From contig OZ252286.1 of assembly GCA_965250045.1 (NCBI GenBank), positions 434,355 to 498,354 on the forward strand: a stretch of DNA of 64,000 nucleotides, in the 5' to 3' direction. The first letter of the stretch is position 1. Each line of letters begins with the position of its first letter. The notes beneath the pieces are model-generated. The model did no database searches, was not told the origin of the DNA, and worked only from the letters and a program-made list of their open reading frames with translations. The stretch is from Candidatus Marinacidobacterium sp. (GTDB taxonomy: Bacteria > Acidobacteriota > Vicinamibacteria > Marinacidobacterales > Marinacidobacteraceae). Made by a program: the position numbers and the translations under genes. Below are positions 822 through 58,954 of the stretch, piece after piece.

Positions 822-1730
822 ATGATCAGAACCACGCGTAACCCCCAGCTCCCAGCGGCATTCGCCGCCCTTCTCGCAATCGCCCTCCCGGCCACCGCGC
901 CCGCCCAGGACTTCCCCGCCCCCGAAATGGTGGAAATCAAGGGCGGCGTCTTCTTCATGGGCTCGCAAACCGGCCCGCCCCAGGAGAAGCCGATCCACGC
1001 CGTCCAGGTCTCCGACTTCTGGATCTCGAAGTACGAGGTGACCCACGCCCAGTTCGCGGCCTTCGTCGAGGACACCGGCTACGTCACCGAAGCGGAGAAA
1101 TTCGGCACGGGGCGGATCCTCCGGGACGGCAGCTTCGGCTATTACCCCGGCTTCATCTGGAAGGAACCCCACGGCCCCGGCTCGACGGTCGAAGAGCCCG
1201 ACAAGTACCCCGTCGTCCAGGTGAGCTGGAACGACGGGGTGGCCTACACCCGCTGGCTGAGCCGCAGGACGGGGCAGGCGTACCGGCTACCGACGGAAGC
1301 GGAATGGGAGTACGCCTGCCGCGGCGGCACCCAGACGACCTACTGGTGGGGCGACGAGTTCGATCCCACGATGCTGAACAGCTCGGTGACCTGGCGGCAG
1401 GGCGATGCGCCCTGGCCGCGGGACGAGCACACCCTGATCACGCGCGTGGATCGCTACCCGGCGAACGCGTTCGGCCTCCACGACATCCTCGGCAACAACT
1501 GGGAGTGGGTCCAGGACTACGCCTCCGCCGACCACTACGCCACGGAAGTTCGCCGGCCGGAGTCCCCCGTGGTGGACCCCCAGGGCCCCGCCTCCGGACA
1601 CGAGCGCGTCCTCCGGGGTGGCGGCTGGAACGGAACCGCCGCCCGTTCGACCTGTTCTTTCCGCTTCCTCGCCGATCCGCCGGTGTACCGCAGCGACCAC
1701 GTCAGCCTGCGGGTCGTCCGGAACCCCTGA
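822..1730 (+). CDS. formylglycine-generating enzyme (FGE/SUMF1) family protein. Secreted; signal peptide present.
   Basis: ATG at 822 is in frame with the long ORF 57..1730. N-terminal signal LPAAFAALLAIALPATAPAQ. FGE-sulfatase domain motifs MVEIKGGVFFMG, GYRLPTEAEWEYACRGG, GNNWEWV. Confidence 0.85.
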   Translation: MIRTTRNPQLPAAFAALLAIALPATAPAQDFPAPEMVEIKGGVFFMGSQTGPPQEKPIHAVQVSDFWISKYEVTHAQFAAFVEDTGYVTEAEKFGTGRILRDGSFGYYPGFIWKEPHGPGSTVEEPDKYPVVQVSWNDGVAYTRWLSRRTGQAYRLPTEAEWEYACRGGTQTTYWWGDEFDPTMLNSSVTWRQGDAPWPRDEHTLITRVDRYPANAFGLHDILGNNWEWVQDYASADHYATEVRRPESPVVDPQGPASGHERVLRGGGWNGTAARSTCSFRFLADPPVYRSDHVSLRVVRNP

Positions 1731-1823: not shown

Positions 1824-2234
1824 GTGGCCCGAAGTGCCGGGGCGGGCGCGTTCCTGTGGTCAGACCTCTCCGGTAGACAAGATCCCGCTTTGACCTCTGC
1901 GCTGCAACTGCATCCGGCGGAACAGCACTGGCTGGACGCCTACCGTCGGGAGCTCAAGAAGCGCCATCCGGACGCCGTGAAGGTCATGGTCATATACGGC
2001 TCCAGGGCTCGCGGCGATGGAGGCGAAGACAGCGACCTCGATGTCCTGCTCGTGGTCCGGAACGAGGCCGCCGGGTTGAAACGGGATCTACGTCGAATCG
2101 GTTATCGGCTGTCTGCGGCGTCGTACGCCGTACCGTCCATCCTCGCCTATACCGAAGGCGAGTGGGAGCATCGTAGGCGCGTCCGGTCGCCGTTTCTGGA
2201 AGCCGTCGAACGGGACGCCGTGAGGGTTCTGTGA
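1824..2234 (+). CDS. Minimal nucleotidyltransferase (MNT/MntA-like antitoxin-type NTase). No HEPN partner is present.
   Basis: NTase motif GSRARGDGGEDSDLDVLLVV (GS-x9-DxD). Alternative TTG start near 1891. Lies inside a 549-bp insert bounded by 80-bp direct repeats. Confidence 0.7.
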   Translation: MARSAGAGAFLWSDLSGRQDPALTSALQLHPAEQHWLDAYRRELKKRHPDAVKVMVIYGSRARGDGGEDSDLDVLLVVRNEAAGLKRDLRRIGYRLSAASYAVPSILAYTEGEWEHRRRVRSPFLEAVERDAVRVL

Positions 2235-2279: not shown

Positions 2280-2359
2280 TCTGTTCTTTCCGCTTCCTCG
2301 CCGATCCGCCGGTGTACCGCAGCGACCACGTGAGTCTCCGGGTGGTCCGGAACCCCTGA
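2280..2359. repeat. Direct repeat. This is a second copy of the last 80 bp of the FGE gene (copy 1 at 1651..1730, about 5 mismatches).
   Basis: Both copies encode ...CSFRFLADPPVYRSDHVSLRVVRNP-stop. Confidence 0.8.
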
Positions 2360-4630: not shown

Positions 4631-4634
4631 CTCC

Positions 4635-6691: not shown

Positions 6692-6756
6692 CGGCGCGCT
6701 GACGCTCCGCCCGGCGGAACCGTTTCCTCAGACCGGCCTTTTGCTCCAGGTGTTGG

Positions 6757-6982: not shown

Positions 6983-7065
6983 GACCCCGCCGCCATTCCT
7001 GTCGCACTGCCCCGCCGCAGAACAGGCACGCTCTCCCACCCCGCCCCAGCCCCTCCGCCGCCAGC

Positions 7066-7110
7066 CGCCGGAAAAAACAAAATGGCCGCAAACTCAACGG
7101 GTTTGCGGCC
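7066..7110 (-). terminator. Rho-independent terminator for the minus-strand DUF4013 operon
   Basis: Perfect 10-bp stem GGCCGCAAAC/GTTTGCGGCC with a 7-nt loop. On the minus strand it is followed by ATTTTGTTTTTTCC. Confidence 0.75.
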
Positions 7111-7205
7111 CTGCCGCATGACCCACGGCCCTCTGTTTACCCCCTTGCATTCTCATGGAGAGTCCACCGGGAGAACTGGCCGGCGGTCCCTGAGCTGATC
7201 CGCGG

Positions 7206-7973: not shown

Positions 7974-8089
7974 CGTTTTCCTTCCGGGGATACCAGGGTC
8001 ATTTCCCTTCCCCGAATCCAGTTAACGAATACGACTCGCGAAAGTTCTTGGGCGCTGGGGACGACGCGGGGTGCTGTCTCCACGGGCCG

Positions 8090-8764
8090 CTAGATCCCCA
8101 TCAGGCGGGCGACGCGGCCGAGAGCCACTCCCGAGGCGGCGTGACCCCAGAAGATGCCCGGGATCAGCCCGATCCCGCAGAGCGCGGAACTGGCGGTCGA
8201 CAACACCTCGATCAGGATCACGATCAACAGGAAGATGACGTAGGTCCCGAGGTGGGCCTGGATCAGGCGGAGGTTTTCCTGGAACCCGAACGCCGATCGG
8301 ATCTCGTTACTGGCGACCATCCGCGCCACGGCCACCGGCATGAGCGCGTAGGCGAGCAGGCTCAGCAGCAGAGTCAACGGACCGAGGACCACGTTCGCGA
8401 GCGCGCCCAGCACCGGGATGAAGCCGAGGATGCCGATGACTACCGTCAAGGCGAGCACCGGCAGGAGATAGCCGAGAATCACGCCGAGCACGCGCAGCCC
8501 GTCACCCAGTATCTGGCCGAGATCTCCCCACTCCGGCATCGGGTGCTCCTCGCCATTGCGGGCGCGCTGCGCCGTTTGGAACAAGAAGCCGAGGAGAGCG
8601 AGCAGACCAAGTCCGAAGAACAAGATGCCGATCACCGCGAGGCACCCGCCGAGGAACTTCGGCAAGGCTCGCGGATCCCGGAAGGAGCCTCCGAGAATGT
8701 CTCCGAGATCCAGGGTTCCGGACGCGGCGGCCCTGCCGTTCGGGGTGGGCTGTTCTTGGGTCAT
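8090..8764 (-). CDS. DUF4013-like membrane protein (paralog 2)
   Basis: Start MTQEQ preceded by GGGAGAA. Motifs SFRDPRALPKFL, GEEHPMPEW, DGLRVLG. Confidence 0.7.
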   Translation of the reverse strand: MTQEQPTPNGRAAASGTLDLGDILGGSFRDPRALPKFLGGCLAVIGILFFGLGLLALLGFLFQTAQRARNGEEHPMPEWGDLGQILGDGLRVLGVILGYLLPVLALTVVIGILGFIPVLGALANVVLGPLTLLLSLLAYALMPVAVARMVASNEIRSAFGFQENLRLIQAHLGTYVIFLLIVILIEVLSTASSALCGIGLIPGIFWGHAASGVALGRVARLMGI

Positions 8765-8794
8765 GTTGTTCTCCCTGTTCACCCGTAACGACTC

Positions 8795-9646
8795 TTAGTC
8801 GGCAGCGGTTTCCGCGGTTTCCGCGGCCTCCACCTCGATCCCCATGATGCGGCCGGCCTGGCCGATCGCGGCGCCGGAAGCCGCGAAGGCCCAGAAGAGG
8901 CCGGGCACCAGGCCCACCAGGAAGAGCGACAACGAGGCGCTGGCGAGGATCGCGAACAGAACGAGGATCAGCAGGAGCAGGATGTACGTCCCGGGGTGGA
9001 CGCGGATCCGCCGCAGACTGTTGACCCAACCGAGCGCCGGCCGGATCCGGCCGGTGGCCGCCAACTGCATGAACCCCGCAGGGAGGAGCGCCTTGGCGAA
9101 GCCGGCCAGCAACACCACGAACCAGCCGGTGACCACCAGACCGAAGACGGCGGACGCTCCGATGAGGCCGGCTCCCGCGACCGGGACCGCAACCAACTCG
9201 GGAAGGATTTCGCCAAAGACATCGGGGCCGACCCCGATCTCCGTCACGGCGCCGACGACCCCGGCCAGGACCCCGCCGGCAATCCCGACCGCGATCATCC
9301 CGATCAGGAAGCTCACCAGGAAGAGCCCGCCCCCGATTACCGCCACCACGGCGCCATAGACGAGGGCGACTGCCAGCGCCCGAAGACCGTCGGCGAGCTG
9401 GCTGGCCCACGCATTCCAGCCCGGCATCGGGTGTTCGTCGCCGCGCAGCGCGCCGCGCGCCGTCTGGACGGCGAACCCGAGCAGCAGCAGCAGCCCGAAC
9501 CCCAAAAACGGGATCAGCAGAACCGCAACACAACCGATCCCCCACTTGCGGAACGCCATCGGGTCTCGGAAGGCGAACCCGAACAGGAAGCCGAGGTCGA
9601 TTCGTGCCCGCGGCGTGCCGGCAGCGGTGGTTGCGTCGTCGTTCAT
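8795..9646 (-). CDS. DUF4013-like membrane protein (paralog 3)
   Basis: Motifs [47 protein letters not shown] hairpin sits immediately 5' of the start. Confidence 0.7.
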
Positions 9647-12441: not shown

Positions 12442-13422
12442 TCAGCGGGCCGAAGTCGGAGTCTCGCCGGCGAGGATCCGCCGGAAGACGCCCATTTCGA
12501 TATTCCCGCCGGAAACGACGCAGACGATCCGGCGCTTTCGGCCTTCTTCGCCCGGACGGATCGGCACCCGGCCGGCCACCGCCACCGCCACCGGGCTCGC
12601 GCCGGCGCCCTCCGCCACGATCCGGCTCCGCCCCGCCAGAATGCGAACCGCGTCTGCGATCTCGTCGGGGGACGCGAGCAGCGGCTCGTCGAGAAGCTCC
12701 TGGACCAGCGGCCACATCGGCTCCAATACGGTGTTCCCGCCGATCCCGTCCACGAAGCTGGGCTCGGTGTCGATCCATTGAGGAGACCCGTGTTCAACCG
12801 CGGCCACCACCTTGGCTGAGGTAGTGACTTCCACGGGATGCACGCGCGCCGCCGAGCCCTTCTGCCGGAGGGCGCTAGAAATGCCGCAGCTAAGCCCGCC
12901 GCCTCCGAAGGGCACCAGTACGGCGTCCACGTTCGGCAGATCTTCGAGAATCTCCAGTCCGGCGGTGCCGTTGCCGGCCATCACCGGATCCCCTTCCACC
13001 GGGTGAACGAAGCGGGCGTCGGATCCCGGGTGGGTGTGGGTGACGATCGCCTTCCACCACTCGGCGAACGGCTCCACCACGACCTCCGCCCCGAGGGCCG
13101 CGATGGCCTGACGCTTGTTCTCCGGGGACGTCTCGGGCACAACCACAGTGCAGGGGACTCCCCGCTCCCGCGCCATGAAGGCAGCCGCCTGTGCCCAGTT
13201 CCCGGCGCTCGCGGTCACCACCCCGCGCGAGAGTTCCGCGTCGTCAAAGGACGCGAAGAGGTTGGCGGCAGCGCGGATCTTGAAACAGGCGAAGGGCTGG
13301 AGGTTCTCCAGCTTCAGCCAGATCTCGTCCGGGCCGTCCACCGGCAGCCGGACCAGCGGCGTCCGGACCGCGTAGGGGGCGATCCGCGAACGAGCCGCTT
13401 CGATTTGTTCCAGGGGGATCAT
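12442..13422 (-). CDS. PLP-dependent threonine/serine dehydratase-family enzyme
   Basis: Lys-containing motif FACFKIRAA (PLP site) and glycine-rich loop PFGGGGL. About 320 aa, typical of catabolic threonine dehydratase or serine racemase-like enzymes. Confidence 0.8.
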   Translation of the reverse strand: MIPLEQIEAARSRIAPYAVRTPLVRLPVDGPDEIWLKLENLQPFACFKIRAAANLFASFDDAELSRGVVTASAGNWAQAAAFMARERGVPCTVVVPETSPENKRQAIAALGAEVVVEPFAEWWKAIVTHTHPGSDARFVHPVEGDPVMAGNGTAGLEILEDLPNVDAVLVPFGGGGLSCGISSALRQKGSAARVHPVEVTTSAKVVAAVEHGSPQWIDTEPSFVDGIGGNTVLEPMWPLVQELLDEPLLASPDEIADAVRILAGRSRIVAEGAGASPVAVAVAGRVPIRPGEEGRKRRIVCVVSGGNIEMGVFRRILAGETPTSAR

Positions 13423-13454
13423 GGGCGCGGGAGTCTAAGCGCGGACGCCGGTGG

Positions 13455-13555
13455 CGGCCCGGAGGCCGCCTGCCGCCCGGAGGCCGCCTGCCGCCCGGAG
13501 GCCGCCTGCCGCCCGGAGGCCAACTGCCGCCCGGAGGCCGACTGCCGCCGCGAGC
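13455..13555. repeat. Tandem repeat, 18-bp unit CCGGAGGCCGCCTGCCGC, about 5.5 copies. The last two copies are variant.
   Basis: Seen directly. Lies in the intergenic gap between the coaX stop and the dehydratase start. Confidence 0.85.
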
Positions 13556-13599
13556 GCGGCCGGACCATGCGCTACAAGTCGGGCGCTACGAGCCGGGCG

Positions 13600-15355: not shown

Positions 15356-15808
15356 CGGGTGAGCTTAGTGGGGGGACGCTCGGCCGGAACGGTGCCGGGC
15401 GGCCGGACCTGTCGACTCCCGGCGCCGCACGTTCGCTGTGAGAATGCCGGCGCGCGGGACGCCGACAGCCCGGATGGCGCGCTGGCCAGGGAACGTCGGC
15501 CAGTTCTCCCGGTGGGGGCGTTCACACCGGCACCGCCCCGCGGAGCGGGGCGAGAGGGCGTAACGCCAACCGCGAAGAAGCGCGGGGACGGCTTGGAACG
15601 CCGACCTCCGGTCGGCACCCGCTGGCCTCCGGCCAGCGCACGGCGCATCGGTAAGTGGCGGTGTGGTTCCCCTCTCGGCACGTGCCCCACCGGGAGAACT
15701 GCCCAGAGGTCGGCCTTCCCTCGCCGGCAGCGCCATCAGCAGGGCTGGGGTACCAGGGGAACCTCCCCTTGCACCGCAACTGGGCTGGCGTTCCCTCCCG
15801 GTTTCCGC
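15356..15808. repeat. Intergenic mosaic of family-D and family-C REP-like palindromic units
   Basis: Contains GGGAACGTCGGCCAGTTCTCCCGGTGGGGGCGTTCACACCGGCACCGCC (the exact inverse of 37420-37490), GGAACGCCGACCTCCGGTCGGCACC, and CCCACCGGGAGAACTG. Confidence 0.6.
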
Positions 15809-16939
15809 CTACCGCCGTCTGGCGGTGAGGGTCAGCGACGGACGGTCGCCGCCGGCGTGAACGAAATCCAGAACGAGGCGGCCTTCGGCGTCCCGGTGGG
15901 GCAGCGCCGGCTGGTCCAGGGAAGTCAAAGCCCAACCGGGGGGCAGCACGATCCGCGTCCGGGGACGGGCCAGGAAACGGAGCAGCCGGAGGTCCCCGTC
16001 CTCGAGCAGTTCAAGACCCGGATTGATCGCGGTCTGGTAAAGCCGGACGCGCGCGCTCCCGCCCTCTGGAACCGGGTAGCCCAGATCGGCCACCAGGACC
16101 TTCACATCGGCGGGGAGGGGCTCCGGGGCATGCGGGATCGCGGCGGCCTCCTCCACAGACACGATTCGGGTCGGCAACTCGACCCCGCGATCCACGTCGA
16201 GGGTCACGGGGTCGAGGATCTCGTCGGTGGGAATCAGCACCGAGAACACGTGAGCCTGACCCGGGGTGTCCAAGAGCAGTTCCAGAGCGAGGCGCAGCCG
16301 GTGTTCGGCGGGATCCTCGAGCCAGTAGATGATGTTCTTCTCGTCTTCCGCCCGGAAGTCCCCCTCGCTGGGGCGGACTGCTCCCGGGTCTCCGGGTTCG
16401 AAATCGAGCCGGACCGGGAGGGGCTCCGGACCGGGATTCAGGATGCCCAATTTGAGCCGGCCGTCCTCCACGGCGGTCTGCACCGGAACCGTCGAACTCC
16501 GGAGGACCGTGCCCGGGGGCAGCACCACCGTGATCCGTCCCGGCGGTGCGGCGTGCTCGAAGATCAGCCCGGCGGCGTGGGGCCGGACGTAGTGGGGCCG
16601 GTCGGCGGTCTCCTCGATGCGGAGACGCCGTTCCGCCCGTTCTCCGAGCGTCGTCCCGAGCGCAATCCGGAGGGCCTCCCCCGTCGCCGTGGTCGAAAGG
16701 ACGGTGCCGGCGGCCCGGTCCGTAGCCACGGCTCGTTCGGGGACGCTCCCGTGCGACAGGAGGAACACATGTTCCTCGACCCCGGCGCCTTCCACGATGC
16801 GGTCCGAGACGATCCGGATCTCGCTTCCGTCGCCGATCTCGTAGCGAGTCGCCAGCGCCAGGCTACGGAACGGGTCATCCGCGGTGACCAGAGCTGCGAC
16901 CGGAACCGACACCAGCAGCGCGACGAGGGTTTTCTTCAT
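15809..16939 (-). CDS. secreted hypothetical protein, 376 aa, with signal peptide
   Basis: Start MKKTLVALLVSVPVAALVTA. The 148 codons upstream in the ORF overlap the repeat region and are rejected. Function unknown. Confidence 0.6.
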   Translation of the reverse strand: MKKTLVALLVSVPVAALVTADDPFRSLALATRYEIGDGSEIRIVSDRIVEGAGVEEHVFLLSHGSVPERAVATDRAAGTVLSTTATGEALRIALGTTLGERAERRLRIEETADRPHYVRPHAAGLIFEHAAPPGRITVVLPPGTVLRSSTVPVQTAVEDGRLKLGILNPGPEPLPVRLDFEPGDPGAVRPSEGDFRAEDEKNIIYWLEDPAEHRLRLALELLLDTPGQAHVFSVLIPTDEILDPVTLDVDRGVELPTRIVSVEEAAAIPHAPEPLPADVKVLVADLGYPVPEGGSARVRLYQTAINPGLELLEDGDLRLLRFLARPRTRIVLPPGWALTSLDQPALPHRDAEGRLVLDFVHAGGDRPSLTLTARRR

Positions 16940-17042
16940 GACGCGGCCAGCCTCCCGAACCAGCCTCGGGTAGTGTTGTGCCTCTTGTCCGCACCCCGCA
17001 AATCCGCCCCCAGCGGGCAGGGCTTCCGGTAATGAGGGAGTC

Positions 17043-18407
17043 ATGAACGGCGGGACGGCGAACGAGAAAGAACACCAGAGCTCCATCGCCGCATGGCGCG
17101 ACCACATGTTGCGGGCCGGCGAAGTCCCCGGCCCCGAACTGGACGAGTTGGAGCGAGCGCTTTCGGAGGAATTCGGCTCACTCCGGGAAGCGGGGCTCGA
17201 CGACGACGACGAAGCGTTCCTCGTCGCCCTGAAGCGGCTGGGCGAACGGCATGCCCCAACCCGCGAGTTCGCTCTCCCGTACGCCCGGAATCTCCTCGAC
17301 CGGCCCGCGGAGACGGCAGATTCCGGCCGGCGCTCCCGGACCGAACCGATGGTGGTCTTCGGACTCGCCGCGCTCGCCGCCATCGCGATCAGGCTCCCGG
17401 AGCTGTTCGGCTTTCCGCTTGAGGACGGCGGCGGGGTCTATGTGCGGAACCTGAGCCTCTTCGTCTTTCCGTGTCTCGCGGGCTATTTCGGGTGGAAGCG
17501 CCGGCTCGAAGTCCCGAGCGCGATCCGGGTCGGCCTCGCCTTCGTCGCGGCCGCTGTCCTGGTCAACGCCTTTCCGTTTGCCTCGGAAGGAGCGACCGAG
17601 TCGCTCGCCGCGCTGCATCTCCCGATCGCCCTGTGGATGGCCGTCGGGGTGGCCTACGCCGGCGGGCGCTGGAACAGCACCTCGCACCGCTTGAAGTTCG
17701 TGAGATTTTCCGGCGAACTGTTCATCCACTGCGTGCTGATCGGGCTCGGCGGCGTGGTGCTCATCGGGCTGACCATGATCACCTTCCGCGCGATCGGGGT
17801 GGACGCCGAACGGCTTGTGGAGGAGTGGGTGCTTCCCTCGGGAGCCCTGGGGGCGATCGTCGTCTCGGGTTGGCTCGCCGATACGAAAGCGAACGTGGCC
17901 GGGAACATGGCGCCGATGCTGACCCGCATCTTCACCCCGCTCTTCGCTGCGGTCCTGATCACGTTCCTCCTGACGATGGCCTGGGCGGGAACCGGCATCC
18001 GAATGGAGCGTGAGGTGCTCATCGGCTTCGATCTGCTCCTCGTGGTGGTCGTCGGGCTGGTTCTCTACGCAGTGGCGGCGCGGGCACCGGCCGCCCCGCC
18101 CGGCGCCTTCGATGGCCTTCAGCTCGTTCTCGTGATTTCCGCGCTCGCCGCGGACGCGCTGGCGCTCGGAGCGATCGGCGCCCGGATCTCCGAGTTCGGC
18201 TTCACCGCCAACCGGACCGCGGCCCTCGGCGTAAACCTGATCCTGTTCGCCAACCTTGCCGGATCGGCCTGGCTCACCCTCCAGTTTCTCCGGAGGCGCG
18301 GTTCGGGCGCCGCGCTCGAGCGCTGGCAGACCGCCTTCCTGCCGGTGTACGCCGGTTGGGCGGCGGTAGTCGTCGCCCTGTTTCCACCGCTGTTCGGCTA
18401 CCGCTAG
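17043..18407 (+). CDS. polytopic integral membrane protein of unknown function, with a roughly 110-aa soluble N-terminal domain
   Basis: SD GAGGGAG before the ATG. About 10 predicted TM segments. Transcribed divergently from the secreted protein gene. Confidence 0.65.
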   Translation: MNGGTANEKEHQSSIAAWRDHMLRAGEVPGPELDELERALSEEFGSLREAGLDDDDEAFLVALKRLGERHAPTREFALPYARNLLDRPAETADSGRRSRTEPMVVFGLAALAAIAIRLPELFGFPLEDGGGVYVRNLSLFVFPCLAGYFGWKRRLEVPSAIRVGLAFVAAAVLVNAFPFASEGATESLAALHLPIALWMAVGVAYAGGRWNSTSHRLKFVRFSGELFIHCVLIGLGGVVLIGLTMITFRAIGVDAERLVEEWVLPSGALGAIVVSGWLADTKANVAGNMAPMLTRIFTPLFAAVLITFLLTMAWAGTGIRMEREVLIGFDLLLVVVVGLVLYAVAARAPAAPPGAFDGLQLVLVISALAADALALGAIGARISEFGFTANRTAALGVNLILFANLAGSAWLTLQFLRRRGSGAALERWQTAFLPVYAGWAAVVVALFPPLFGYR

Positions 18408-18413
18408 CAGCCG

Positions 18414-19541
18414 GTGGCAGCACGGCCCATGAGAACCTCGTCCCCGGCGCGATCGCCCGGATCATCAATGCGTCCCCCTGACCCGCGCCGCTACCGCGCC
18501 CGGCGCCCGGTCATCGCGGTCGCGGGGTTCGTCTGCGCCCTGCTCCTGGAAAGCAGTCCCGGCTGGGGGTACCGCTTCTACCCTTCGCGCGACGAGGACT
18601 CCGTCGTCCCGCGCAGCGATGCGGCGAGGCGCTGGCAGTCGACCGTCTGGGGACCGGGAGATACCCTGGTCTGGCACTTGCTGGACGATCCGCTGTGGCT
18701 GGCCCATTTCTCGGGACCGGAGGAAGCGCTTCCCCTTGTTGAGGAATCGCTGGACGCGTGGGGGCGAATCCCGAGCACCGACGTGCGCTGGCGAGTTGAC
18801 GGGATCATCGTGGGAGAGCAGGTTCGGGGCGATGGCCGCAACACCGTGTCGGTGGAGGAAACGGAGGACTTCGCCGGGCAGGCACGACGGTGGAGTAGAA
18901 GGCGGCTAGGCGGACCTTGGGAAAGGGTGGAGTGTGATGTCGTGCTCGGTACCGTCTATCTTGAGAAGTTGGCGGGTACCGACGACAATCGCCTCAGCAC
19001 GCTCCTCCACGAGCTCGGGCACTGCCTTGGCCTGGCGCATGCGGCGGTGACCCCGACAGTCCGCTGGAATCGGAGCTGGACCGATTCGTCGGTCTGGCAA
19101 AAGGATCCCCAGATGTCCTATGGCAGGGACATTGACAACACCCTGGCCGAGGACGAGGCGATCGGCGCCTCGCTGTTACGTCCGGTGCGCGGATGGCTGC
19201 GAACCACTGGAAGCATCTCGGGACGGGTTCTGTCCGACAGCGGTCCGGCGGCCTTCGTCTCGGTCCATGTCCTGCGTAACAACGGCGGCAGGGCGCGGCC
19301 CGCCGTTCAGGTGTTCAGCAACGAAACCGGTGAATTCCTCACCGAGGGTCTCGCCCCCGGCGAGTACCTCCTCTGGATCCATCCGATGATCGCCCAGAGC
19401 GCCCATGGTCGCCTTCTCCAACGGGGTGACCCCCTGTCGGACCTGAACGACTCCCTCGAATTGCAGCTGCTCGTCGTGCGCGCCGGGCGGGAAACCCGGG
19501 CGGGCGAGTTGACCCTCTCGCACGGACGGGTCGTCCCGTGA
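18414..19541 (+). CDS. secreted metzincin-type zinc metalloprotease with a C-terminal carboxypeptidase-regulatory-like beta domain
   Basis: HELGHCLGLAH (HExxHxxGxxH). Signal-peptide-like RRPVIAVAGFVCALLL. SISGRVLSDSG is CarbopepD_reg-like. Confidence 0.75.
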   Translation: MAARPMRTSSPARSPGSSMRPPDPRRYRARRPVIAVAGFVCALLLESSPGWGYRFYPSRDEDSVVPRSDAARRWQSTVWGPGDTLVWHLLDDPLWLAHFSGPEEALPLVEESLDAWGRIPSTDVRWRVDGIIVGEQVRGDGRNTVSVEETEDFAGQARRWSRRRLGGPWERVECDVVLGTVYLEKLAGTDDNRLSTLLHELGHCLGLAHAAVTPTVRWNRSWTDSSVWQKDPQMSYGRDIDNTLAEDEAIGASLLRPVRGWLRTTGSISGRVLSDSGPAAFVSVHVLRNNGGRARPAVQVFSNETGEFLTEGLAPGEYLLWIHPMIAQSAHGRLLQRGDPLSDLNDSLELQLLVVRAGRETRAGELTLSHGRVVP

Positions 19542-20374
19542 GCCGCGCGGCGAGACTCCTGGGAGCACTTGGGGCGCTACTGGGGGCAGCCTGCGGCGGC
19601 GACAGCAGCGGGGCCGCGCCAAGTGTCGTCGCGCCGGTACCTCCGGCCGTGACCGTCTCCTTTGCCCGGGACGCCGTCACCGTTGGAGAAGGGGAGACCG
19701 CAGAAATCGAGGTGCGGTATCGCATCAACAGCCTCGCCAGTCCTCTCTCGCTCGTGGTCTCCCCACTCGACCAGGGCGCGGCACCGGAAGACTACGAGCT
19801 GTCTGCGACCAGCTTCGAGATCCCCGCCGGGCAGAGAGTGAGCGGAACCGCTGGGCTGGCGCTGACCGCGCTCCCGGACGGCCAGATCTCGGAAGGGGAA
19901 GAAGTCGTGGCTCTGCGCCTGGTGCCGCCGGGGAGCATCCGGGCGCAGCTCGATGACAACCTTGAGGTCACCATCGCCGATCGGCCGGGGGTTCCCTGTC
20001 CGGGAGTTGGGGTGCTGGCGTCCCCGATCGTCCCGCTGGACTCCGCCCCACAGTGGCTGACCACAACACTCGCGCTCCAGCGGGAACCGAGCGCCGGACG
20101 CATCCAGTTCGACTGGGAAGGACCGTACCTCCACGACCGGGAAAACTGTGACGATGATGCGTGCCGTGAGTGGTGGGAGGCCCGATCTCCCTATCTCGAA
20201 CTCAATGTGGTGGAGTGGCGGGTCGAGTCATCGTCTCGCGGAACGCATCACTCGATGGACATCGAGTGGTTCCAGTCCAAGACCGCCCACCTCCGGTTCC
20301 GTTCCCCGGACGGGGCCTGCGAAGGCGCACCGACGGTTGTCTGCAACGACTCCGGCTGCGAACTGCACCGGTAG
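19538..20374 (+). CDS. lipoprotein with a Calx-beta-like domain. Its start overlaps the protease stop by 4 bp, so the two are an operon.
   Basis: Lipobox LLGAACGG. VTVGEGETAEIEVRY is Calx-beta-like. Confidence 0.65.
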   Translation: MSRAARLLGALGALLGAACGGDSSGAAPSVVAPVPPAVTVSFARDAVTVGEGETAEIEVRYRINSLASPLSLVVSPLDQGAAPEDYELSATSFEIPAGQRVSGTAGLALTALPDGQISEGEEVVALRLVPPGSIRAQLDDNLEVTIADRPGVPCPGVGVLASPIVPLDSAPQWLTTTLALQREPSAGRIQFDWEGPYLHDRENCDDDACREWWEARSPYLELNVVEWRVESSSRGTHHSMDIEWFQSKTAHLRFRSPDGACEGAPTVVCNDSGCELHR

Positions 20375-20445
20375 CTGGTTCCGGGCGCACCGCGATGTCC
20401 ACTTGACATCAACATGGAGGCATATGTTGCTGCCATGATGCTCCT

Positions 20446-20715
20446 GTGCGGACGACACTGACGATCGAGCCGGATGTCGCGATCGAGATCGACAGACGGC
20501 GACGGGCCTCCGGAAGCTCGCTGAAGCGGGTCATCAATGGCCTGTTGCGGAAGGGGCTGCGGGCCGAGGCGGAAGCTCCGACTCCGTCACCCTATCGGTC
20601 GGAGACTTTCGATCTGCAGTTCCGCCCCGGAATAGATTCACTGAAACTGAACCAGCTCGTGGACGAGCTGGAAGTGGAATCGTTTGTGGAACGGGAAGCA
20701 CCGAATCGTCCGTGA
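20446..20715 (+). CDS. vapB: VapB-family antitoxin
   Basis: GTG start. 89 aa. MRTTLTIEPDVAIEIDRRRRASGSS... Its end overlaps the downstream PIN gene start by 4 bp. Confidence 0.7.
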   Translation: MRTTLTIEPDVAIEIDRRRRASGSSLKRVINGLLRKGLRAEAEAPTPSPYRSETFDLQFRPGIDSLKLNQLVDELEVESFVEREAPNRP

Positions 20716-21143
20716 TCGTTCCGGACGTCAACCTGCTGAGCTACGCGATCAACCGCAACAGCCCGTTCCACGATCAGGCCCGCGAGTGGTGGGACGCTGC
20801 GGTCTCCGCAGGGATCGTCGCGCTGTGTTGGCCGACCGTGGTCGGATTCCTGCGCCTCGCGACGAATCGCCGCGTCCTGGTGGACCCCCTGCCGGTGGAG
20901 AAGGCGACGGGCATCGTGGACACCTGGCTCGCACAGCCCGACGTCCATCTGTTGGTCCCGACTTCCGCGCACTGGGGCATCCTGGCCAGACTGCTGCGAG
21001 CCACCCAGGTCGGCGGGAATCTGGCCACGGACGCCCACCTCGCCGCCTACGCCATCGAGCACGGCCGCACCCTCGCCTCGAACGACGCGGACTTCGGCCG
21101 GTTTCCGGGGCTACGCTGGCGGAATCCGGTCAGGGCTTCCTGA
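20712..21143 (+). CDS. vapC: VapC-type PIN-domain toxin
   Basis: (M)IVPDVNLLSYAI..., ...LATDAHLAAYA..., ...LASNDADF... Confidence 0.85.
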   Translation: MIVPDVNLLSYAINRNSPFHDQAREWWDAAVSAGIVALCWPTVVGFLRLATNRRVLVDPLPVEKATGIVDTWLAQPDVHLLVPTSAHWGILARLLRATQVGGNLATDAHLAAYAIEHGRTLASNDADFGRFPGLRWRNPVRAS

Positions 21144-21195
21144 CTCACGGCCGGAGGACCGGCACCGCGGAAAGGAATGCGGATTCGGTCGCCGG

Positions 21196-21313
21196 CAAAA
21201 ACCGGACATCGAGTGGCACGACTCAAGAGCCGCCCACCTCCGTTTCCGTTCCCCGGACGGGGTCTCTGCCGGAGAACCGACGGTTGCCGGGAACGACGCC
21301 GGTTGCGAACTGA
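21196..21313. repeat. Diverged direct repeat of the lipoprotein gene 3' end (copy 1 at 20255..20374, about 80% identity)
   Basis: Encodes DIEWHDSRAAHLRFRSPDGVSAGEPTVAGNDAGCELTG, versus the authentic C-terminus DIEWFQSKTAHLRFRSPDGACEGAPTVVCNDSGCELHR. Confidence 0.8.
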
Positions 21314-22070
21314 CCGGGTAACCGCTCTCTGCCGCCGGACCGAACGCCGGGGTGCGGCGGCCGGTCAAGACCGCGTTTTCAGGATCGGTGATGCGCGTTT
21401 GCCGTGAAGATGCAGCCCCGCGCGGGAACCCCAACGGTCCAGATGGTGCCGGCCGCAAGGGAACGCCGACCTCCGGCCAGTTGCTGTGAAAATGCAGTCG
21501 TGACCGGGACGCCGACAGTCCAGATGGCGCATGGGCAAGGGAACGCCGACCTCCGGGCAATTCTCCCGGTGGGGCCCGGCACCGCTGCGCGTAGCGCAGC
21601 GAACGGTGTCTTCACTCAGCTGTAGGGATGACGCCGCACGCCGCGGTTCCCGCCGGAAGCAGGACCACCCCCGAACTGGACGGAGGTTCTTCCCTGCCGC
21701 CCGCCTTCGGCGGGCTGTGCCGACCGGAGGTCGGCGTTCCCTTGCCTGCGCGTCGCTCTACATGGTGGCCTGGGTGCCGAGACGTACACCATCTCGGAAC
21801 TGCATTTTCATGCCCGGCGGGGTGGGCAGGCGGAGCCGATCATGGGGGTTCCTAGCTCTGCGGGCGGCGATGCCGGCCGGAGGTCGGCGATCCCTTTCGG
21901 CGTCACACCAACGGGGAACAGAGGCGGCCCTTAACAAGCCTGTGGTGAAACCCAGGCGGCCCAGTTCTCCCGGTGGGTGCTCCTCCCTCACGCGCCTTGT
22001 CAGCCGGACCCCCACCGGGAGAACTGGGCCTCACCGCTCTCGGCGCTCACCCGGGTTCCACCACCGGCTG
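21314..22070. repeat. Roughly 750-bp noncoding composite of family D, family B (about 21670-21855) and family A (21936-22073) repeat elements
   Basis: The family B unit is about 80% identical to 58031-58215. The family A unit has CAAGCCTGTGGTGAAACCC...GGTTCCACCACCGGCTGCTA ends. Confidence 0.7.
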
Positions 22071-54029: not shown

Positions 54030-54278
54030 CGCCGGGCTTCGGGACAGACGCCCCAGCGCCGGCACGGTAACCGCCCCGTAGACGGCTCCGAACAGTGCCC
54101 CGAACAACGGACTCTCCCCCTTGAACCCGATGGCCGCGCCCACCGCCACGGTAACGACTGCGGCCAGGACGAAACCGCCGGCGCTGGCGGCGGCCAACAG
54201 GCCGGCTCCCGGCGCGGACCGCCGAAGGACGAGCCAGTGCGCGAGGACGAAGGCGGTGAGCCCCACCACGGCGGGCAC
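54030..54278 (-). pseudogene. Partial duplicate (C-terminal half) of the membrane protein gene at 58349..58954. The stop appears to be lost.
   Basis: The 85-aa stretch is nearly identical (PAVVGLTAFVLAHWLVLRRSAPGAGLLAAASAGGFVLAAVVTVAVGAAIGFKGESPLFGALFGAVYGAVTV). About 200 nt are roughly 95% identical to 58441-58640. The ORF then reads antisense through the ATPase gene. Confidence 0.5.
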
Positions 54279-54315
54279 CGCAGGCGGCTCGGGGTAGCCG
54301 GCCAGGCTCAGAGCC

Positions 54316-55458
54316 CTACAGTCTCCGCAGATAGGCCGATACGACCGGATCCACCAACGTCCAGCGCCCGTCGTCCTCCTGGCGGATCAGGTCTTCCCGT
54401 TCCAACACCTCCCTGGCCTGGTTCCCGGTGGAGGTGGGCAGGCGAAGGGCGGACAGGAAGCGGTGCGAACCGGGATGCTCCACCCCGCCGTCCAGGTGCG
54501 CAATCGCCCGCAGGACGGCGCGCTGGCTGGGTGAGAGGCGGATCACTCGGCCGGCGACGATACGTCCTTCCTCTTCGACAATCCGGGACCATTGCGCGTC
54601 CACCGACTCGGGCGTGGGGGGACGCCGCGCCCCCCAAAGCCGGGCACAGAGCGCGTTGACGTAGTAAGGGTGCCGGGCGGTGAACTTGAGGATCCTGGCA
54701 ATCGCATCGTCGGTCGCGGCCCGCCGCCAGCGCGTTTCGCTGGCATGACGTATGAAGGCTTGGTAGTCGGCCTCGCCGATGCGGTCGAGAGTCATCTTCC
54801 GGCAAAGGCGGTACAGCGGTCGTTCCTCCTCCTCGAACATCGCCGCCAGCAGGTGTTTCTGGCTACCGGAGAACAGGTAGGTGACATTTGCGGATCGCTC
54901 CACGGCGTGCCGGATCGCGCCTTCCAGACTGCGTGGCGCCGTCCGCGGAGAAAGCTGCGCCAGTTGCTGGAACTCATCGAGCACCATGACCACCCGCCGC
55001 TGAACCGCCCCCGCCGCCCGGTCGAGCCCGAGCAGCATCTCCATGATCCCGCGTGCCGGGGGAGCCGGCGGCGAGAGCTTGAGCTTCAGACCCATCGCGC
55101 CAAAGGAGAACTCGGGCGCAAGCGCCCGAAAGGCATCGCCGAGCTCTTCGCTCGCCCTCCGGCCCTTTGGCGCAATCCGGGCACTGACCTCTTCAACGGC
55201 GGCCCGCAATCGCCCTTCAAGATCCTCGGCGTCATGCGCGACGAGAAGGTCAACTGTCGCCGCAGCGATCGCCCCACCGGCAAGATCCTGGAGCACCTGT
55301 TCGACAAGGCTGGTCTTGCCCATCCGGCGGCGGCCCCAGAGCCAGGTGTGCACCCCGGCGCTGATGTTGCGCCCGAGTTCGGCGCGCTCCTCGGTGCGGT
55401 TGCAGTGGGCGTCCCCGGTGGCGATTCCGAGCGGGAAAAGGTTGGAGCTGGCGGGCAT
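54316..55458 (-). CDS. AAA+ ATPase, PF01637 (Arch_ATPase)-like
   Basis: NLFPLG N-terminus. Walker A GRRRMGKTS, Walker B VMVLDEFQ. An AT-rich stretch lies immediately upstream (55459-55540). Confidence 0.8.
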   Translation of the reverse strand: MPASSNLFPLGIATGDAHCNRTEERAELGRNISAGVHTWLWGRRRMGKTSLVEQVLQDLAGGAIAAATVDLLVAHDAEDLEGRLRAAVEEVSARIAPKGRRASEELGDAFRALAPEFSFGAMGLKLKLSPPAPPARGIMEMLLGLDRAAGAVQRRVVMVLDEFQQLAQLSPRTAPRSLEGAIRHAVERSANVTYLFSGSQKHLLAAMFEEEERPLYRLCRKMTLDRIGEADYQAFIRHASETRWRRAATDDAIARILKFTARHPYYVNALCARLWGARRPPTPESVDAQWSRIVEEEGRIVAGRVIRLSPSQRAVLRAIAHLDGGVEHPGSHRFLSALRLPTSTGNQAREVLEREDLIRQEDDGRWTLVDPVVSAYLRRL

Positions 55459-55539
55459 GAATCTGATTCTACTCCAATACTTTATGAAACGTCCTACCCC
55501 GTTCCGTATATCTACGTTTCACTATTTGCGGGTGCCATG

Positions 55540-55990
55540 AGCACGCAGACCTTTCTGGCCGTGAATCGGCGGTGCCCCACCCGGTATCGGCGTTCCGCGT
55601 TCAGTCCGGTACGCGATCGGCTGGGGCGTGTCGCAGACCGGACCCTTCCCGCGGCACTTCCTGCCCCTTACGAGCCGCCGAAGACAGGCCCGAACCGGGC
55701 GCTCCAAGGCCGCTCCCACCGCCGAGGTCAGGACCCCGGCAACCACGAAGCTGCCGGCACTGGCTGCGGCCAGCCGGGGCACCCGCCGGTGCAGGACGAG
55801 CCACGGAGCAAGGAAGAAGGGCGGCGAGTCCGGTAGTTGGTGCTGCCGAAGATGCGCACGGACCACCGGCGAACAAACCGATGGGGAGATCGTCCCGAGC
55901 CCGACTGGCTACGATTGCCACCCCACGCCGCAGGTCGAGGAGACGCCGGATGCCGGGCGCTCCAGGATCGTCGTGGCGGAAGTGCGACCC
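55540..55990. other. Mosaic of gene fragments: a degenerate third copy of the membrane-protein gene (about 55690-55850, minus strand) and a roughly 60-bp internal fragment of the downstream hydrolase gene (55607-55665, versus 56866-56924)
   Basis: Fragment GTACGCGATCGGCTGGGGCGTGTCGCAGACCGGACCCTTCCCGCGGCACTTCCTG, versus the genic GTACGCGATCGGCTGGGGCGTGTCGCAGACCGGACGCTTCCTGCGGCACTTCCTG. Residual protein similarity FFLAPWLVLHRRVPRLAAASAGSFVVAGVLTSAVGAA. Confidence 0.65.
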
Positions 55991-56001
55991 GGAGGAACTT
56001 C

Positions 56002-58020
56002 ATGCGCCTGATTGCGACCACGGTGGTCTCCTGTTTACTGCTGGCAACGGGAATAGCGCAAGCCGAGCTGGTCCGCCTGCGGGTGGAACGCCGCGAAACG
56101 GTGGCGAACGGCATGGCGTTCGGTCTGGCCGGCCCCTACGAGAAGCTGGTCGGGATGGCTGACTTCGCCCTCGATCCCGATGTGCCGCAGAATCGAATCA
56201 TCGTTGACCTTCCCCTCGCGCCGAGGAACGCCGATGGCCGTGTCGAGTTCAGCGCGGAGTTCTTTCTCCTGAAACCTGTCGATCCGACTCGCGGCAACGG
56301 GCGGCTCTTCTACGAAGCGGGAAACCGGGGCTCGAAACGCATCCTCGTGACGTTCCAGCAGGCGGCGCGGGCGTCCGATCCGATGACTGCGGAAGAGTTC
56401 GGCGACGGGGCGCTGATGCGTGACGGTTTCTCGCTGCTCTGGATGGGTTGGCAGTGGGACACGCCCGAGGGACGGATGCGCATGACCATGCCGATCGCCA
56501 CCGAGGGCGGCGATCCGATTACCGGGTTGGTGCGCGGCAACTTCATCGTTGCCGCCCGGGACCAGCCCGGGCTGCTCGCCGATCGCGGTCATGCGGCCTA
56601 TTCGGTCGTCGGCCCCGGGAACAATGAGCACGCCATGACGGTGCGGGACCTTCCGACCGATCCGCCGGAGACGGTGCCTCGGGACACATGGCGATTCACC
56701 GAGCCCGGCGTCGTGGAGCTCGATGGCGGCTTCGAGCCGGGCCGCATCTACGACGTGGTCTATCTCAGCCGGGATCCAAAGGTGGTCGGCGTCGGGCTTG
56801 CGGGTACGCGCGACATCGTCAGCTTCTTCAAGTACGACACCACCGAGGCGAACCCGCTACCCGGCATCGAGTACGCGATCGGCTGGGGCGTGTCGCAGAC
56901 CGGACGCTTCCTGCGGCACTTCCTGTATGAGGGCTTCAATGAGGACGAGCAAGGTCGCCAGGTCTTCGATGGGGTCTTCGATCAGGTGGGGGGCGCCGGC
57001 CGCGGCTCCTTCAACCATCGGTTCGGGCAGGCGTCACGCGACGCCGAGCAGCACCTGAACTTCCTTTTCCCGGTGGACATGTTTCCGTTCACCGATGCGA
57101 CGACGACGGACCCGGTAACCGGCGAAACCGACGGTCTACTGGAACGGACGGAGACCACCGGGACGACACCGAAGCTGTTCCATGTGTTGACCAACTCGGA
57201 ATACTTCAACCGCGCCGGTTCGCTCGTTCACACCGACGTAACCGGCTCGCGGGATATCGAACCACCGGCGACCAGCCGCATCTATTTCATCTCGTCGGCG
57301 CCGCATGTCCTCGGTCGCTTTCCGCCGCAACCCAACCCGAACGAATCGTTTCGCGGGCAGGCGCCGATGAATACCCTGGCCTACGCGCCGGTGATACGCG
57401 CCCTGTTCCGGGCGCTCGACGCCTGGGTCGTTGAAGGAGACGAGCCGCCTCCGAGCCTCTATCCGCGCATCGACAACGGGACGCTCGCGCCGCCGGCGGA
57501 CGCCGGCTGGCCGCACATCCCCGGGTTCAGCCTTCCGCAGCATCCGCTGACGGCGCTGCGCCTCGATTTCGGACCCGATTGGGACCGGGGCATCGTGACC
57601 AGGGAGCCACCCGGAATCGGCGCCCCCTTCGTCCAGCTGGTGCCGGCCGTGGACGCCGACGGGAACGACCGCGCCGGGATCCGGATGCCCGAAGTGGCGG
57701 TTCCGCTGGCGACCCACACCGGCTGGAACTACCGGCACGCGAGCATCGGCGCTCCGGATCGTCTGTCCGGCGAGATCGGCTCCTACTTCGCCTTTCCGCG
57801 AACCCGTGCGGAAGGTGAGGAGTCCGACAATCCGCGACAATCCATCGAGGAGCGGTATCGCGACCGGCATGACTATCTGGGAAGAGTCACCCAGGCCGCG
57901 CTCAAACTGGTGGAGCGGGGTTATCTGTTGGCCGCCGACCTCCCGGACATCATCAATCGGGCCGGCCGCCACTATGACTGGGCACTATCGGAACACGAAC
58001 GGAGCGGCGACCGCCATTAG
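56002..58020 (+). CDS. secreted alpha/beta-hydrolase-domain protein of unknown specificity
   Basis: SD GGAGGAA. Signal peptide MRLIATTVVSCLLLATGIAQA. 672 aa. Confidence 0.75.
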   Translation: MRLIATTVVSCLLLATGIAQAELVRLRVERRETVANGMAFGLAGPYEKLVGMADFALDPDVPQNRIIVDLPLAPRNADGRVEFSAEFFLLKPVDPTRGNGRLFYEAGNRGSKRILVTFQQAARASDPMTAEEFGDGALMRDGFSLLWMGWQWDTPEGRMRMTMPIATEGGDPITGLVRGNFIVAARDQPGLLADRGHAAYSVVGPGNNEHAMTVRDLPTDPPETVPRDTWRFTEPGVVELDGGFEPGRIYDVVYLSRDPKVVGVGLAGTRDIVSFFKYDTTEANPLPGIEYAIGWGVSQTGRFLRHFLYEGFNEDEQGRQVFDGVFDQVGGAGRGSFNHRFGQASRDAEQHLNFLFPVDMFPFTDATTTDPVTGETDGLLERTETTGTTPKLFHVLTNSEYFNRAGSLVHTDVTGSRDIEPPATSRIYFISSAPHVLGRFPPQPNPNESFRGQAPMNTLAYAPVIRALFRALDAWVVEGDEPPPSLYPRIDNGTLAPPADAGWPHIPGFSLPQHPLTALRLDFGPDWDRGIVTREPPGIGAPFVQLVPAVDADGNDRAGIRMPEVAVPLATHTGWNYRHASIGAPDRLSGEIGSYFAFPRTRAEGEESDNPRQSIEERYRDRHDYLGRVTQAALKLVERGYLLAADLPDIINRAGRHYDWALSEHERSGDRH

Positions 58021-58348: not shown

Positions 58349-58954
58349 TTACTCCGACGGTTGTACCAGCCGTCCCAGCGCCACTACCGTCACCGCCCCG
58401 TACACGCCCCCGAACAACGCTCCGAACAGCGGACTCTCCCCCTCGAACCCGATGGCCGCGCCCACCGCCACGGTGACGACTGCGGCCAGGACGAAACCGC
58501 CGGCGCTGGCGGCGGCCAACCGGCCGGCTCCCGGCGCGCACCGCCGAAGCACGAGCCAGTGCGCGAGAACGAAGGCGGTAAGCCCCACCACGGCGGGCAC
58601 CGCCGGCGGCTCGGGGTAGCCGGCCAGGCTCAGGGCCTCGTCTGCCGCGAAGCCGGTGGCGGCGGCGGCCGCCCCGGCGGCGGCAAGGGCCGCGGGCCAG
58701 CGGGCCGCCCAGGAGACCCGCTGGCGCAACAGCAGCCACTGCGCAAGCGCGATCCCGCCGAGGACTCCGCCCCCCGCAACCGCTCCTACGACCGCTTCCC
58801 CGACCACGCCGCCGAAGGCCTGGTGCGCCGCGCCTCCCACCAGGTAGGAGAGCGGCCGCGCCACCACCCCGGCCACCGCCATCCCGGCCGCGCTGGCGAG
58901 CACCCAGCGAAGCCGGAACCCGCGGTCCGTCAGCCCGTGGTCCGGCTCCGACAT
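58349..58954 (-). CDS. Gly/Ala-rich polytopic membrane protein of unknown function with an internal duplication. This is the full-length paralog of the fragments at 54030 and 55690.
   Basis: 201 aa. 5-6 TM segments. Supported as a gene by conservation of its paralogous copies. Confidence 0.6.
   Translation of the reverse strand: MSEPDHGLTDRGFRLRWVLASAAGMAVAGVVARPLSYLVGGAAHQAFGGVVGEAVVGAVAGGGVLGGIALAQWLLLRQRVSWAARWPAALAAAGAAAAATGFAADEALSLAGYPEPPAVPAVVGLTAFVLAHWLVLRRCAPGAGRLAAASAGGFVLAAVVTVAVGAAIGFEGESPLFGALFGGVYGAVTVVALGRLVQPSE

Follow-up and report, generated by a model that had tools for sequence, protein, structure and literature searches.

A diverged lipoprotein gene end behind vapBC in Candidatus Marinacidobacterium: probable scar of recombination between cargo-bearing and cargo-free alleles

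A 64,000-nt stretch of the genome of Candidatus Marinacidobacterium sp. (contig OZ252286.1, positions 434,355 to 498,354; this whole stretch is referred to as the window) carries a vapBC toxin-antitoxin (TA) pair between the working 3' end of a lipoprotein-like gene (copy 1) and a displaced, diverged second version of this end (copy 2; Table 1). We consider it probable, at a level of about 0.6, that the duplicated end is the scar of a recombination between cargo-bearing and cargo-free alleles which combined one homologous exchange with one illegitimate joint. From the observed alleles, breakpoints and copy divergence we infer a recombination route, a direction of transfer and a retention of the insert by addiction. 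The initial annotation of the window had attributed the layout to a recurrent mechanism which inserts TA-like cargo at gene 3' ends; no evidence for a dedicated gene-end-targeting mechanism was found.

Table 1. Features of the lipoprotein locus and of two further loci with the same layout (FGE and M). Positions are those of the window; L numbers denote loci of related genomes.
Feature	Position	Strand	Basis
Intact lipoprotein-like gene, 278 amino acids (aa), family unassigned	19538..20374	+	Open reading frame (ORF); signal peptide then Cys
Copy 1, working 3' end of the lipoprotein gene, stop codon included	20257..20374	+	Repeat alignments
TTGACA (20403-20408) in an imperfect inverted repeat (20404-20415 / 20424-20435)	20403..20435	+	Inverted-repeat search
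Antitoxin-like ORF, 89 aa, putative VapB	20446..20715	+	4-nt overlap with vapC; position and conservation
VapC PIN-domain toxin, 143 aa	20712..21143	+	Pfam PIN 4e-14; TIGR00028; PDB 7vwo
Spacer between vapC and copy 2	21144..21203	.	First 9 nt common to L001 and L005; remainder only in L010
703-bp block not found in L001 and L005; L010 has its first ~340 bp	21153..21855	.	BLAST breakpoints L001 7612/7614, L005 7605/7607
Copy 2, displaced, decaying lipoprotein 3' end	21204..21320	+	Self-alignments; equivalent L010 piece 99% identical
Probable remnant of intergenic DNA from a vapBC-free allele, perhaps with the tail of a convergent outer-membrane beta-barrel protein (OMP) gene	21321..21390	.	BLAST versus L009
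Nested elements resembling miniature inverted-repeat transposable elements (MITE) or repetitive extragenic palindromes (REP), 22-27 nt inverted ends (GGCAAGGGAACGCCGACCTCCGG)	21452..21901	.	Inverted-repeat search; dispersed relatives in the window
FGE locus: intact FGE-sulfatase-family gene; last 79 nt (1652-1730) = copy 1	822..1730	+	Pfam PF03781 4.5e-62
FGE locus cargo: MNT-type nucleotidyltransferase	1824..2234	+	Pfam NTP_transf_2 2.3e-9; NCBIfam MntA below cut-off
FGE', residual fragment, 95% identical to 1652-1730	2281..2359	+	Remainder of a 463-nt fragment kept in relatives
M', fragment, 91.5% identical to the M 3' part	54045..54315	-	Without own stop; begins 6 nt past the stop codon of the AAA ATPase gene
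M locus cargo: AAA ATPase, 54316-55458 (-); alpha/beta hydrolase, 55837-58020 (+)	54316..58020		Pfam
M locus: intact membrane-protein gene M, 201 aa; 3' 271 nt (58367-58637) = copy 1	58349..58954	-	36 homologues

The duplicated gene end, its alleles in relatives and its cargo

The lipoprotein-like gene has a narrow distribution, its 44 homologues all belonging to one Acidobacteria-like clade, and its product gave no match in Pfam and NCBIfam searches. Copy 1 is 97% identical to the same stretch in L001. The identity between the two copies amounts to 82.8% with gaps (20257-20371 versus 21204-21317; self-BLAST E 4.5e-24, which excludes chance similarity), to 79% without gaps and in frame over 38 codons, and to 77% over 132 nt. 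The repeat of the last ~115 bp of the gene at ~80% identity, as initially reported, is thereby confirmed (79-83%), except that its second copy had been set to begin at 21196, about 8 nt too early; the similarity starts with GGACATCGAG at 21204 and stops at the stop codon. The recognisable pseudo-C-terminus ascribed to copy 2 is real as well, as the reading frame and the position of the stop codon are kept; it reads DIEWHDSRAAHLRFRSPDGVSAGEPTVAGNDAGCELTG. Two of its three cysteines are lost, all three being kept by 39 of the 40 listed full-length homologue tails, and copy 2 is therefore a dead gene fragment. An assembly artefact is an unlikely source because L010, which stems from an independent sample, contains the same pseudo-end.

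The syntenic set consists of the window and seven relative loci, whose lipoprotein genes share 86% (L001), 83% (L010), 80% (L002), 72% (L003), 71% (L009) and 64% (L004 and L005) amino acid identity with that of the window. vapBC is found at the same position in six of these eight loci, the pseudo-end only in two of the six (window and L010). In the four other occupied loci (L001, L002, L004 and L005) the orthologous vapBC begins 71 nt past the lipoprotein stop codon and no second gene end is present, the best local alignment scores being 22-25 compared with 126 in the window. The first arrival of vapBC therefore made no duplication, contrary to the earlier proposal of an end-duplicating insertion, and these four loci are direct evidence that vapBC predates the duplication. 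Relatives with duplicated ends and no cargo had been named as the telling counter-case; what the relatives contain is the reverse, cargo without duplicated ends.

Empty sites, which the initial annotation had suggested looking for in related genomes, exist in L003 and L009. There, the lipoprotein gene converges directly on the OMP gene, and neither empty allele has a duplicated gene end. In L002 and L004 the OMP gene lies 45-65 nt after vapC, in L004 as a frameshifted pseudogene; in the window, tblastn detected no OMP remnant beyond the last ~25 nt of that gene. The population holds alleles with and without vapBC as well as with and without the OMP gene. In this Acidobacteria clade, vapBC is a long-established, syntenic accessory pair located where the lipoprotein and OMP genes converge.

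L010 is the sole other strain with the pseudo-end, which is 99-100% identical to that of the window. The entire block of copy 1, vapBC and copy 2 is 95-100% identical between the two, although their lipoprotein gene bodies differ. Copy 2 might also have been the former end of the divergent lipoprotein gene of the window itself; this was rejected, as L010 combines an L001-like body with the same copy 2. Downstream of the pseudo-end the L010 locus is interrupted by an IS110/IS21 insertion, whose IS110 copy (6297-7556) lies just past the equivalent of window position 21491, within the MITE/REP-like block. IS110 elements favour repeated palindromic targets, and the position of this copy fits such a taste.

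The DNA between the two copies (20375-21203) is 829 nt long and similar to the host in composition (65% G+C versus 68% in the window). The 143-aa PIN protein is clearly a VapC, matching NCBIfam TIGR00028 with 141.5 bits (cut-off 73.6) and VapC43 of PDB entry 7vwo with 5.8e-20. The upstream ORF has no match in Pfam, NCBIfam and PDB searches; an 88-89 aa gene occupies the same place in L001, L002, L004, L005 and L010, and only this position and conservation designate it as a putative antitoxin. The complete VapB/VapC pair claimed to lie between the copies is present insofar as an intact vapC and a small, co-oriented, overlapping upstream gene, the hallmarks of a type II VapBC system, were found. 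The pair resembles described members of the TIGR00028 subfamily such as M. tuberculosis VapC43 in its PIN toxin, its small overlapping upstream gene and an upstream inverted repeat; unlike them, its antitoxin-like ORF gave no match to a described family, and TA activity here is putative. With regard to the promoter assigned to TTGACA, the hexamer is there, but a sigma-70-type consensus scan of its surroundings found no complete promoter; the inverted repeat around it possibly serves as vapBC promoter and operator. VapC is 143 aa long in the window, L001, L005 and L010 and 146 aa in L002 and L004; judging from a comparison of window 21120-21143 with L002 7590-7612 and L004 7583-7605, the shorter form apparently ends at a TGA codon that arose by a C-to-T change.

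Recombination between alleles in a mosaic locus

The extra DNA of the window relative to L001 and L005 is not vapBC; it is a 703-bp block starting 9 nt past the vapC stop codon and composed of a ~50-nt spacer, copy 2, ~50-70 nt resembling L009 intergenic DNA, and nested MITE/REP-like elements. The spacer shows a weak likeness to the vapC end and the spacer start of L004 (38 of 1000 shuffles reach the score). In a BLAST comparison with the empty L009 allele the match extends beyond the stop codon of copy 2 as far as 21367, and the ~50-70 nt after copy 2 align in order with the L009 DNA between the stop codon of the lipoprotein gene and that of the OMP gene. When only the segment past the stop codon is scored, its value is matched by 19 of 1000 shuffles; no similarity is seen for the DNA following copy 1. 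These alignments are suggestive of copy 2 being the end of a vapBC-free allele. A hairpin with an 11-bp stem is found at 21331-21361. The MITE/REP-like elements further downstream have dispersed intergenic relatives, some of them nested, at 640-770, 1741-1800, 15435-15750, 58046-58135 and 63464-63503, and occupy gaps left by lost genes, the OMP gene among them.

The sequence to the left of this block alternates strongly in its relation to L001. Identity is 99-100% from 16.9 to 18.6 kb, drops to 60-87% from 18.6 to ~20.1 kb (peptidase gene and most of the lipoprotein gene) and returns to 97-100% from ~20.19 kb through vapBC, so that copy 1 and vapBC belong to one high-identity segment (20190-21152). 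Other strains share different blocks with the window at 96-100% identity. The locus is a recombination mosaic in which homologous exchange between diverged alleles is frequent, because identity alternates along the locus and different strains share different high-identity blocks. Over positions 15700-20200, blocks of 60-70% identity stand beside blocks of 99-100% in the comparisons with L001, L002, L005 and L010, the partners differing by block; variability is highest in the peptidase-like and lipoprotein-like surface genes.

Consistent with these data we propose the following scenario for the origin of the duplicated end. In a first step, vapBC would have entered the gap between the lipoprotein and OMP genes once and without any duplication, a state seen in L002 and L004; this step is required because the gene end and vapBC have to be linked on one fragment before they can be transferred together. 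In a second step, cargo-bearing and cargo-free alleles would recombine by one homologous exchange in or beside the flanking gene and by one illegitimate joint. In the resulting allele, common to the window and L010, the left part (lipoprotein gene, copy 1, vapBC and spacer) would originate from the cargo-bearing allele, and the right part would consist of a cargo-free lipoprotein gene from 115 nt before its stop codon, followed by the intergenic DNA of that allele. The illegitimate joint would thus connect the spacer after vapC with position -115 of the cargo-free gene. The copy travelling with the cargo would keep the gene intact, and the displaced copy would then be free to decay. Addiction modules have an established stabilising role, and on this basis vapBC may help to retain a repeat-flanked and otherwise unstable insert.

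Two routes might lead to such a structure. A linear fragment could have been incorporated by homology-facilitated illegitimate recombination (HFIR), or a fragment re-circularised after cell entry could have integrated by a single crossover. The sequence is compatible with both routes and with either genome as recipient. The circular route has a direct experimental precedent in E. coli: when a non-replicating molecule with an arm from the end of lacZ was used, a gene-end duplication of 109-950 bp was present in 56 of 60 recombinants; these arose by a single crossover of the re-circularised molecule, true HFIR, with one homologous and one illegitimate joint, being rarer (PMC3240628). The likeness to our locus lies in the combination of a single homologous arm in a gene end with foreign DNA. 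In contrast, those were laboratory events, in E. coli, Acinetobacter, Pseudomonas and Streptococcus, whereas the route proposed here is deduced from sequence; moreover, classical HFIR usually deletes recipient DNA instead of duplicating it.

Several observations weigh against a recombination scar. The potential arms, 115 nt long, ~80% identical and with a longest identical run of 19 nt, are a poor crossover substrate, which makes an exchange within the 115-nt repeat unlikely and would place it elsewhere. A working gene end resembling copy 2 was not found among the 44 homologues; an exact and degenerate pattern scan of the JGI metagenome collection for a copy-2-like end found nothing, and a scan of species-representative genomes found one locus only, L009. 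The sequence following copy 2 resembles an empty allele only modestly (~2% of shuffles reach the score), and it does so for L009 but not for L003. The dN/dS ratio of 0.75 between copy 1 and copy 2 is non-discriminating, because the tail evolves fast among true orthologues too (0.15-1.2). Either loss of the block in L001 and L005 or its gain in the window would account for the breakpoints. Finally, the 8-mer CGGCAAAA occurs 2-3 nt 5' of the displaced copy at the lipoprotein locus (21193-21200) and at the FGE locus of the related contig L015 (5021-5028). The window contains just four occurrences of the heptamer GGCAAAA. The sequences around the 8-mer do not align between the two loci, the pattern was noticed post hoc, and its recurrence may be due to chance.

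Two further loci and the search for an insertion mechanism

The layout of an intact gene, a cargo and a diverged gene fragment is found at three loci in the 64 kb. The initial annotation had pointed to a second one, which was verified (1652-1730 matches 2281-2359 at 95% identity); the M locus is a third. At the FGE locus, an ORF following the MNT gene is cut off after ~16 codons at the repeat edge. In six related contigs (L011-L016) the FGE' fragment is ~463 nt long and 94-95% identical, and the cargo measures ~1.85 kb; a counterpart of L015 4555-5409 is missing from the window, whose version of the locus is a deletion derivative. Empty sites of this locus are present in L017 and L019. The M locus is more complete in L020, with the order beta-lactamase-like gene, M, PhdYeFM/PIN pair, hydrolase, AAA ATPase and a fused fragment made up of 426 nt of the beta-lactamase gene end and 268 nt of the M end. 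The duplicated segments of L020 (7555-8584 and 13314-14003) indicate that the M-locus duplication originally exceeded 1 kb and covered parts of two genes. A tandem duplication of the AAA ATPases at the M locus was rejected, their identity being 24% over a partial length. A further M-like fragment (72%) lies at 55708-55831 between the AAA ATPase and hydrolase genes of the window.

A comparison of the divergence of the repeat pairs, as initially suggested, gave dS 0.15 and dN 0.026 for FGE/FGE' and dS 0.24, dN 0.033 and dN/dS 0.13 for M/M', so that dN/dS is 0.13-0.17 at these two loci; the copies at all three loci are 5-21% diverged. The differences are mostly synonymous, and the FGE and M pairs therefore diverged under purifying selection, as working genes of separate lineages, before they were juxtaposed, instead of representing a decayed local duplication. 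The FGE/MNT and M loci may have formed by the same process as proposed for the lipoprotein locus.

This synonymous excess also bears on a local partial tandem duplication, in which a gene end would have been duplicated within one genome before or after the arrival of vapBC, the spare copy decaying neutrally. The near-neutral ratio of the lipoprotein copies (0.75) and the loss of two conserved cysteines would agree with such a history. Yet the neighbouring DNA is 97-100% identical to L001, where the copy is absent, and an in-place divergence of 20% is implausible unless L001 underwent a deletion. Furthermore, the DNA past the two copies differs, and only that of copy 2 resembles an empty allele; no empty allele has a duplicated end, and the FGE and M copies differ mainly at synonymous sites. 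We regard a local origin as very unlikely.

FGE-fold proteins are typical targets of diversity-generating retroelements (DGR), and one of the three genes has an FGE-sulfatase fold. A repeat of 80-120 nt at a gene 3' end with a diverged copy nearby might accordingly be read as the variable repeat of such an element and its downstream template repeat. The mismatches are, however, not adenine-specific in any of the three pairs, their substitution spectra being mixed, and the annotated genes include no reverse transcriptase; this reading was rejected as having practically no likelihood.

Searches for a dedicated insertion machinery gave consistently negative results. No integrase is encoded in the cargo of the window, L001, L002, L004, L005 or L010, and the annotated genes within or next to the cargoes include neither a recombinase nor a reverse transcriptase. 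A tRNA search found none, and an Rfam scan of the whole window produced no match, so that none lies in a repeat or spacer. Terminal inverted repeats bracketing 20257-21203 were not detected, the only MITE-like repeats being those at 21452-21901 downstream of copy 2; a transposon or MITE carrying vapBC was rejected on this account. In the lipoprotein repeat the first 13 nt are identical, the longest identical runs are 13, 13, 19, 11 and 9 nt, and the 19-nt run is internal. No motif is common to the three loci, the post hoc 8-mer being confined to two, and the joints between cargo and copy 2 of different loci align no better than shuffles. A site-specific island was rejected, given that integrase, tRNA and a shared core were not found. 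For the proposed gene-end-targeting mechanism, an integrase, a shared att core, terminal inverted repeats and a tRNA were all looked for and not found; in addition, the duplicated length varies (115 nt at the lipoprotein locus, 79 nt in the window and 463 nt in relatives at the FGE locus, 271 to more than 1000 nt at the M locus) and does not always start near a gene 3' end. The inserts between the repeats span 0.8-5 kb. The sole recombinase gene of the window encodes an IS110-family (DEDD) transposase (5261-6691, +).

These negative results bear in particular on the idea of an integrase-bearing element, of the e14/icd-icdC type or now a cis-mobilisable remnant, that would have inserted site-specifically 115 nt before the stop codon, supplied a surrogate gene end and later decayed by deletions sparing only vapBC. 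The arrangement is that of icd, e14 and icdC, where the intact gene runs into the insert with its surrogate 3' end and a diverged C-terminal pseudogene, icdC, lies beyond (PMC13626634), and the copy similarity in the window ends at the stop codon. Whereas e14 encodes an integrase and uses a defined attachment site, no recombinase and no clear core sequence were found at the locus described here: the cargoes of the window and of five related occupied loci are free of integrase genes, recombinases being limited to IS110 copies elsewhere, no long identical core was found at the repeat edges, and no tRNA was detected. The displaced end is, moreover, absent in four of the six occupied alleles, and the M-locus duplication covers parts of two genes. 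An origin of this kind is quite unlikely.

For annotation, copy 2, FGE' and M' are to be treated as pseudogene fragments and the ORFs reading through such fragments, for example 20684-21313 and 53472-54278, as spurious.

Relation to known systems and further features of the window

The closest described phenomenon is the insertion with long target duplication of restriction-modification (RM) complexes (Nobusato et al. 2000; Furuta, Abe & Kobayashi 2010), characterized by direct repeats of 46-423 bp, the absence of mobility genes and empty sites in sister strains, mostly in naturally competent, recombination-prone species; some of the repeats overlap a gene 3' end, DNA breakage by the cargo was suggested as the common cause, and a virus-like life cycle was proposed (PMC2853133). 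Our loci share with it a small addiction-type unit without mobility gene, long direct repeats of the chromosomal target and empty sites. At all three loci a direct repeat of more than 30 bp surrounds an insert of less than 20 kb without a mobility gene, and single-copy empty sites exist for the lipoprotein (L003 and L009) and FGE (L017 and L019) loci. The two copies are, however, not equally close to the empty target and are 5-21% diverged. In contrast to the RM case, the cargo consists here of RNase-type TA or other genes and cannot have caused the duplication by breaking DNA; the repeats look like alleles of different lineages and not like a fresh duplication, and most cargo-bearing relatives are devoid of a repeat. 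A literature search pairing insertion with long target duplication with toxin-antitoxin found no report of a TA cargo, the mentions checked being confined to reference lists.

In analogy to the life cycle proposed for RM complexes, the cargo could be a self-propagating, recombinase-free addiction cassette. TA cassettes of this Acidobacteria lineage would carry a piece of the neighbouring gene as homology arm, excise as a circle via the flanking repeats, reach naive sister strains and re-integrate at a matching gene end with the help of the host RecA, the resident end being displaced and the toxin-antitoxin pair penalising their loss. All three loci display the required layout, and at each of them a TA pair or TA-family gene directly follows the intact copy in at least one strain (vapBC, MNT and the PhdYeFM/PIN pair of L020). 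The high identity of the copy 1-vapBC-copy 2 block between the window and L010 (95-100%) in spite of differing gene bodies is also in line with a mobile unit, as is the RM precedent with its proposed cycle (PMC2853133). On the other hand, the 44 homologues include no circle, excised form or chimeric "healed" end, and the arms are just ~80% identical over 115 nt. In a genome as rich in TA genes as this one (at least five loci in 64 kb) some association is expected by chance. Furthermore, two of the three window cargoes have already lost the toxin gene or the entire TA pair, and most vapBC-bearing alleles have no repeat at all. We therefore consider an autonomous cassette unlikely. If it did exist, it would be the arm-carrying TA counterpart of the RM life cycle, which has been proposed yet never demonstrated, and cleavage of DNA by the cargo would be unnecessary for insertion with long target duplication. 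Further TA-type genes of the window are a PhdYeFM/PIN pair (4370-5042; 100% and 92% amino acid identity to that of L015), an AbiEi-like regulator (39199-40041; below the Pfam cut-off) and a PIN protein (50585-50986).

The recombination between alleles favoured here finds a further parallel in the minimal mobile elements of Neisseria, which according to title and abstract of the report involve alternative cargo and empty sites between conserved neighbours, host recombination and a mosaic population (PMC3787668). Leftover duplicated gene fragments, as seen in the window, are unmentioned in that title and abstract. Recombination between alternative alleles of a highly mosaic population can give a small accessory cassette and a core gene end the appearance of a targeted insertion. 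If scars of this kind prove to be common and enriched in addiction modules, toxin-antitoxin genes would join RM genes as cargo of insertion with long target duplication, and the shared cause would then be the stabilisation by post-segregational killing and not DNA breakage by the cargo.

Two repeat-rich features lie apart from the loci described above. Three tandem paralogous genes for DUF4013 membrane proteins (7206-9646, -) are the source of the repeat families D1, D12 and D17. Tandem arrays are located at 13421-13564, where an 18-nt unit (GCCCGGAGGCCGCCTGCC) is present in ~6 overlapping copies, and at 37127-37286, where 32-nt units have the motif ACATGTCGCAGTAGCG in common.

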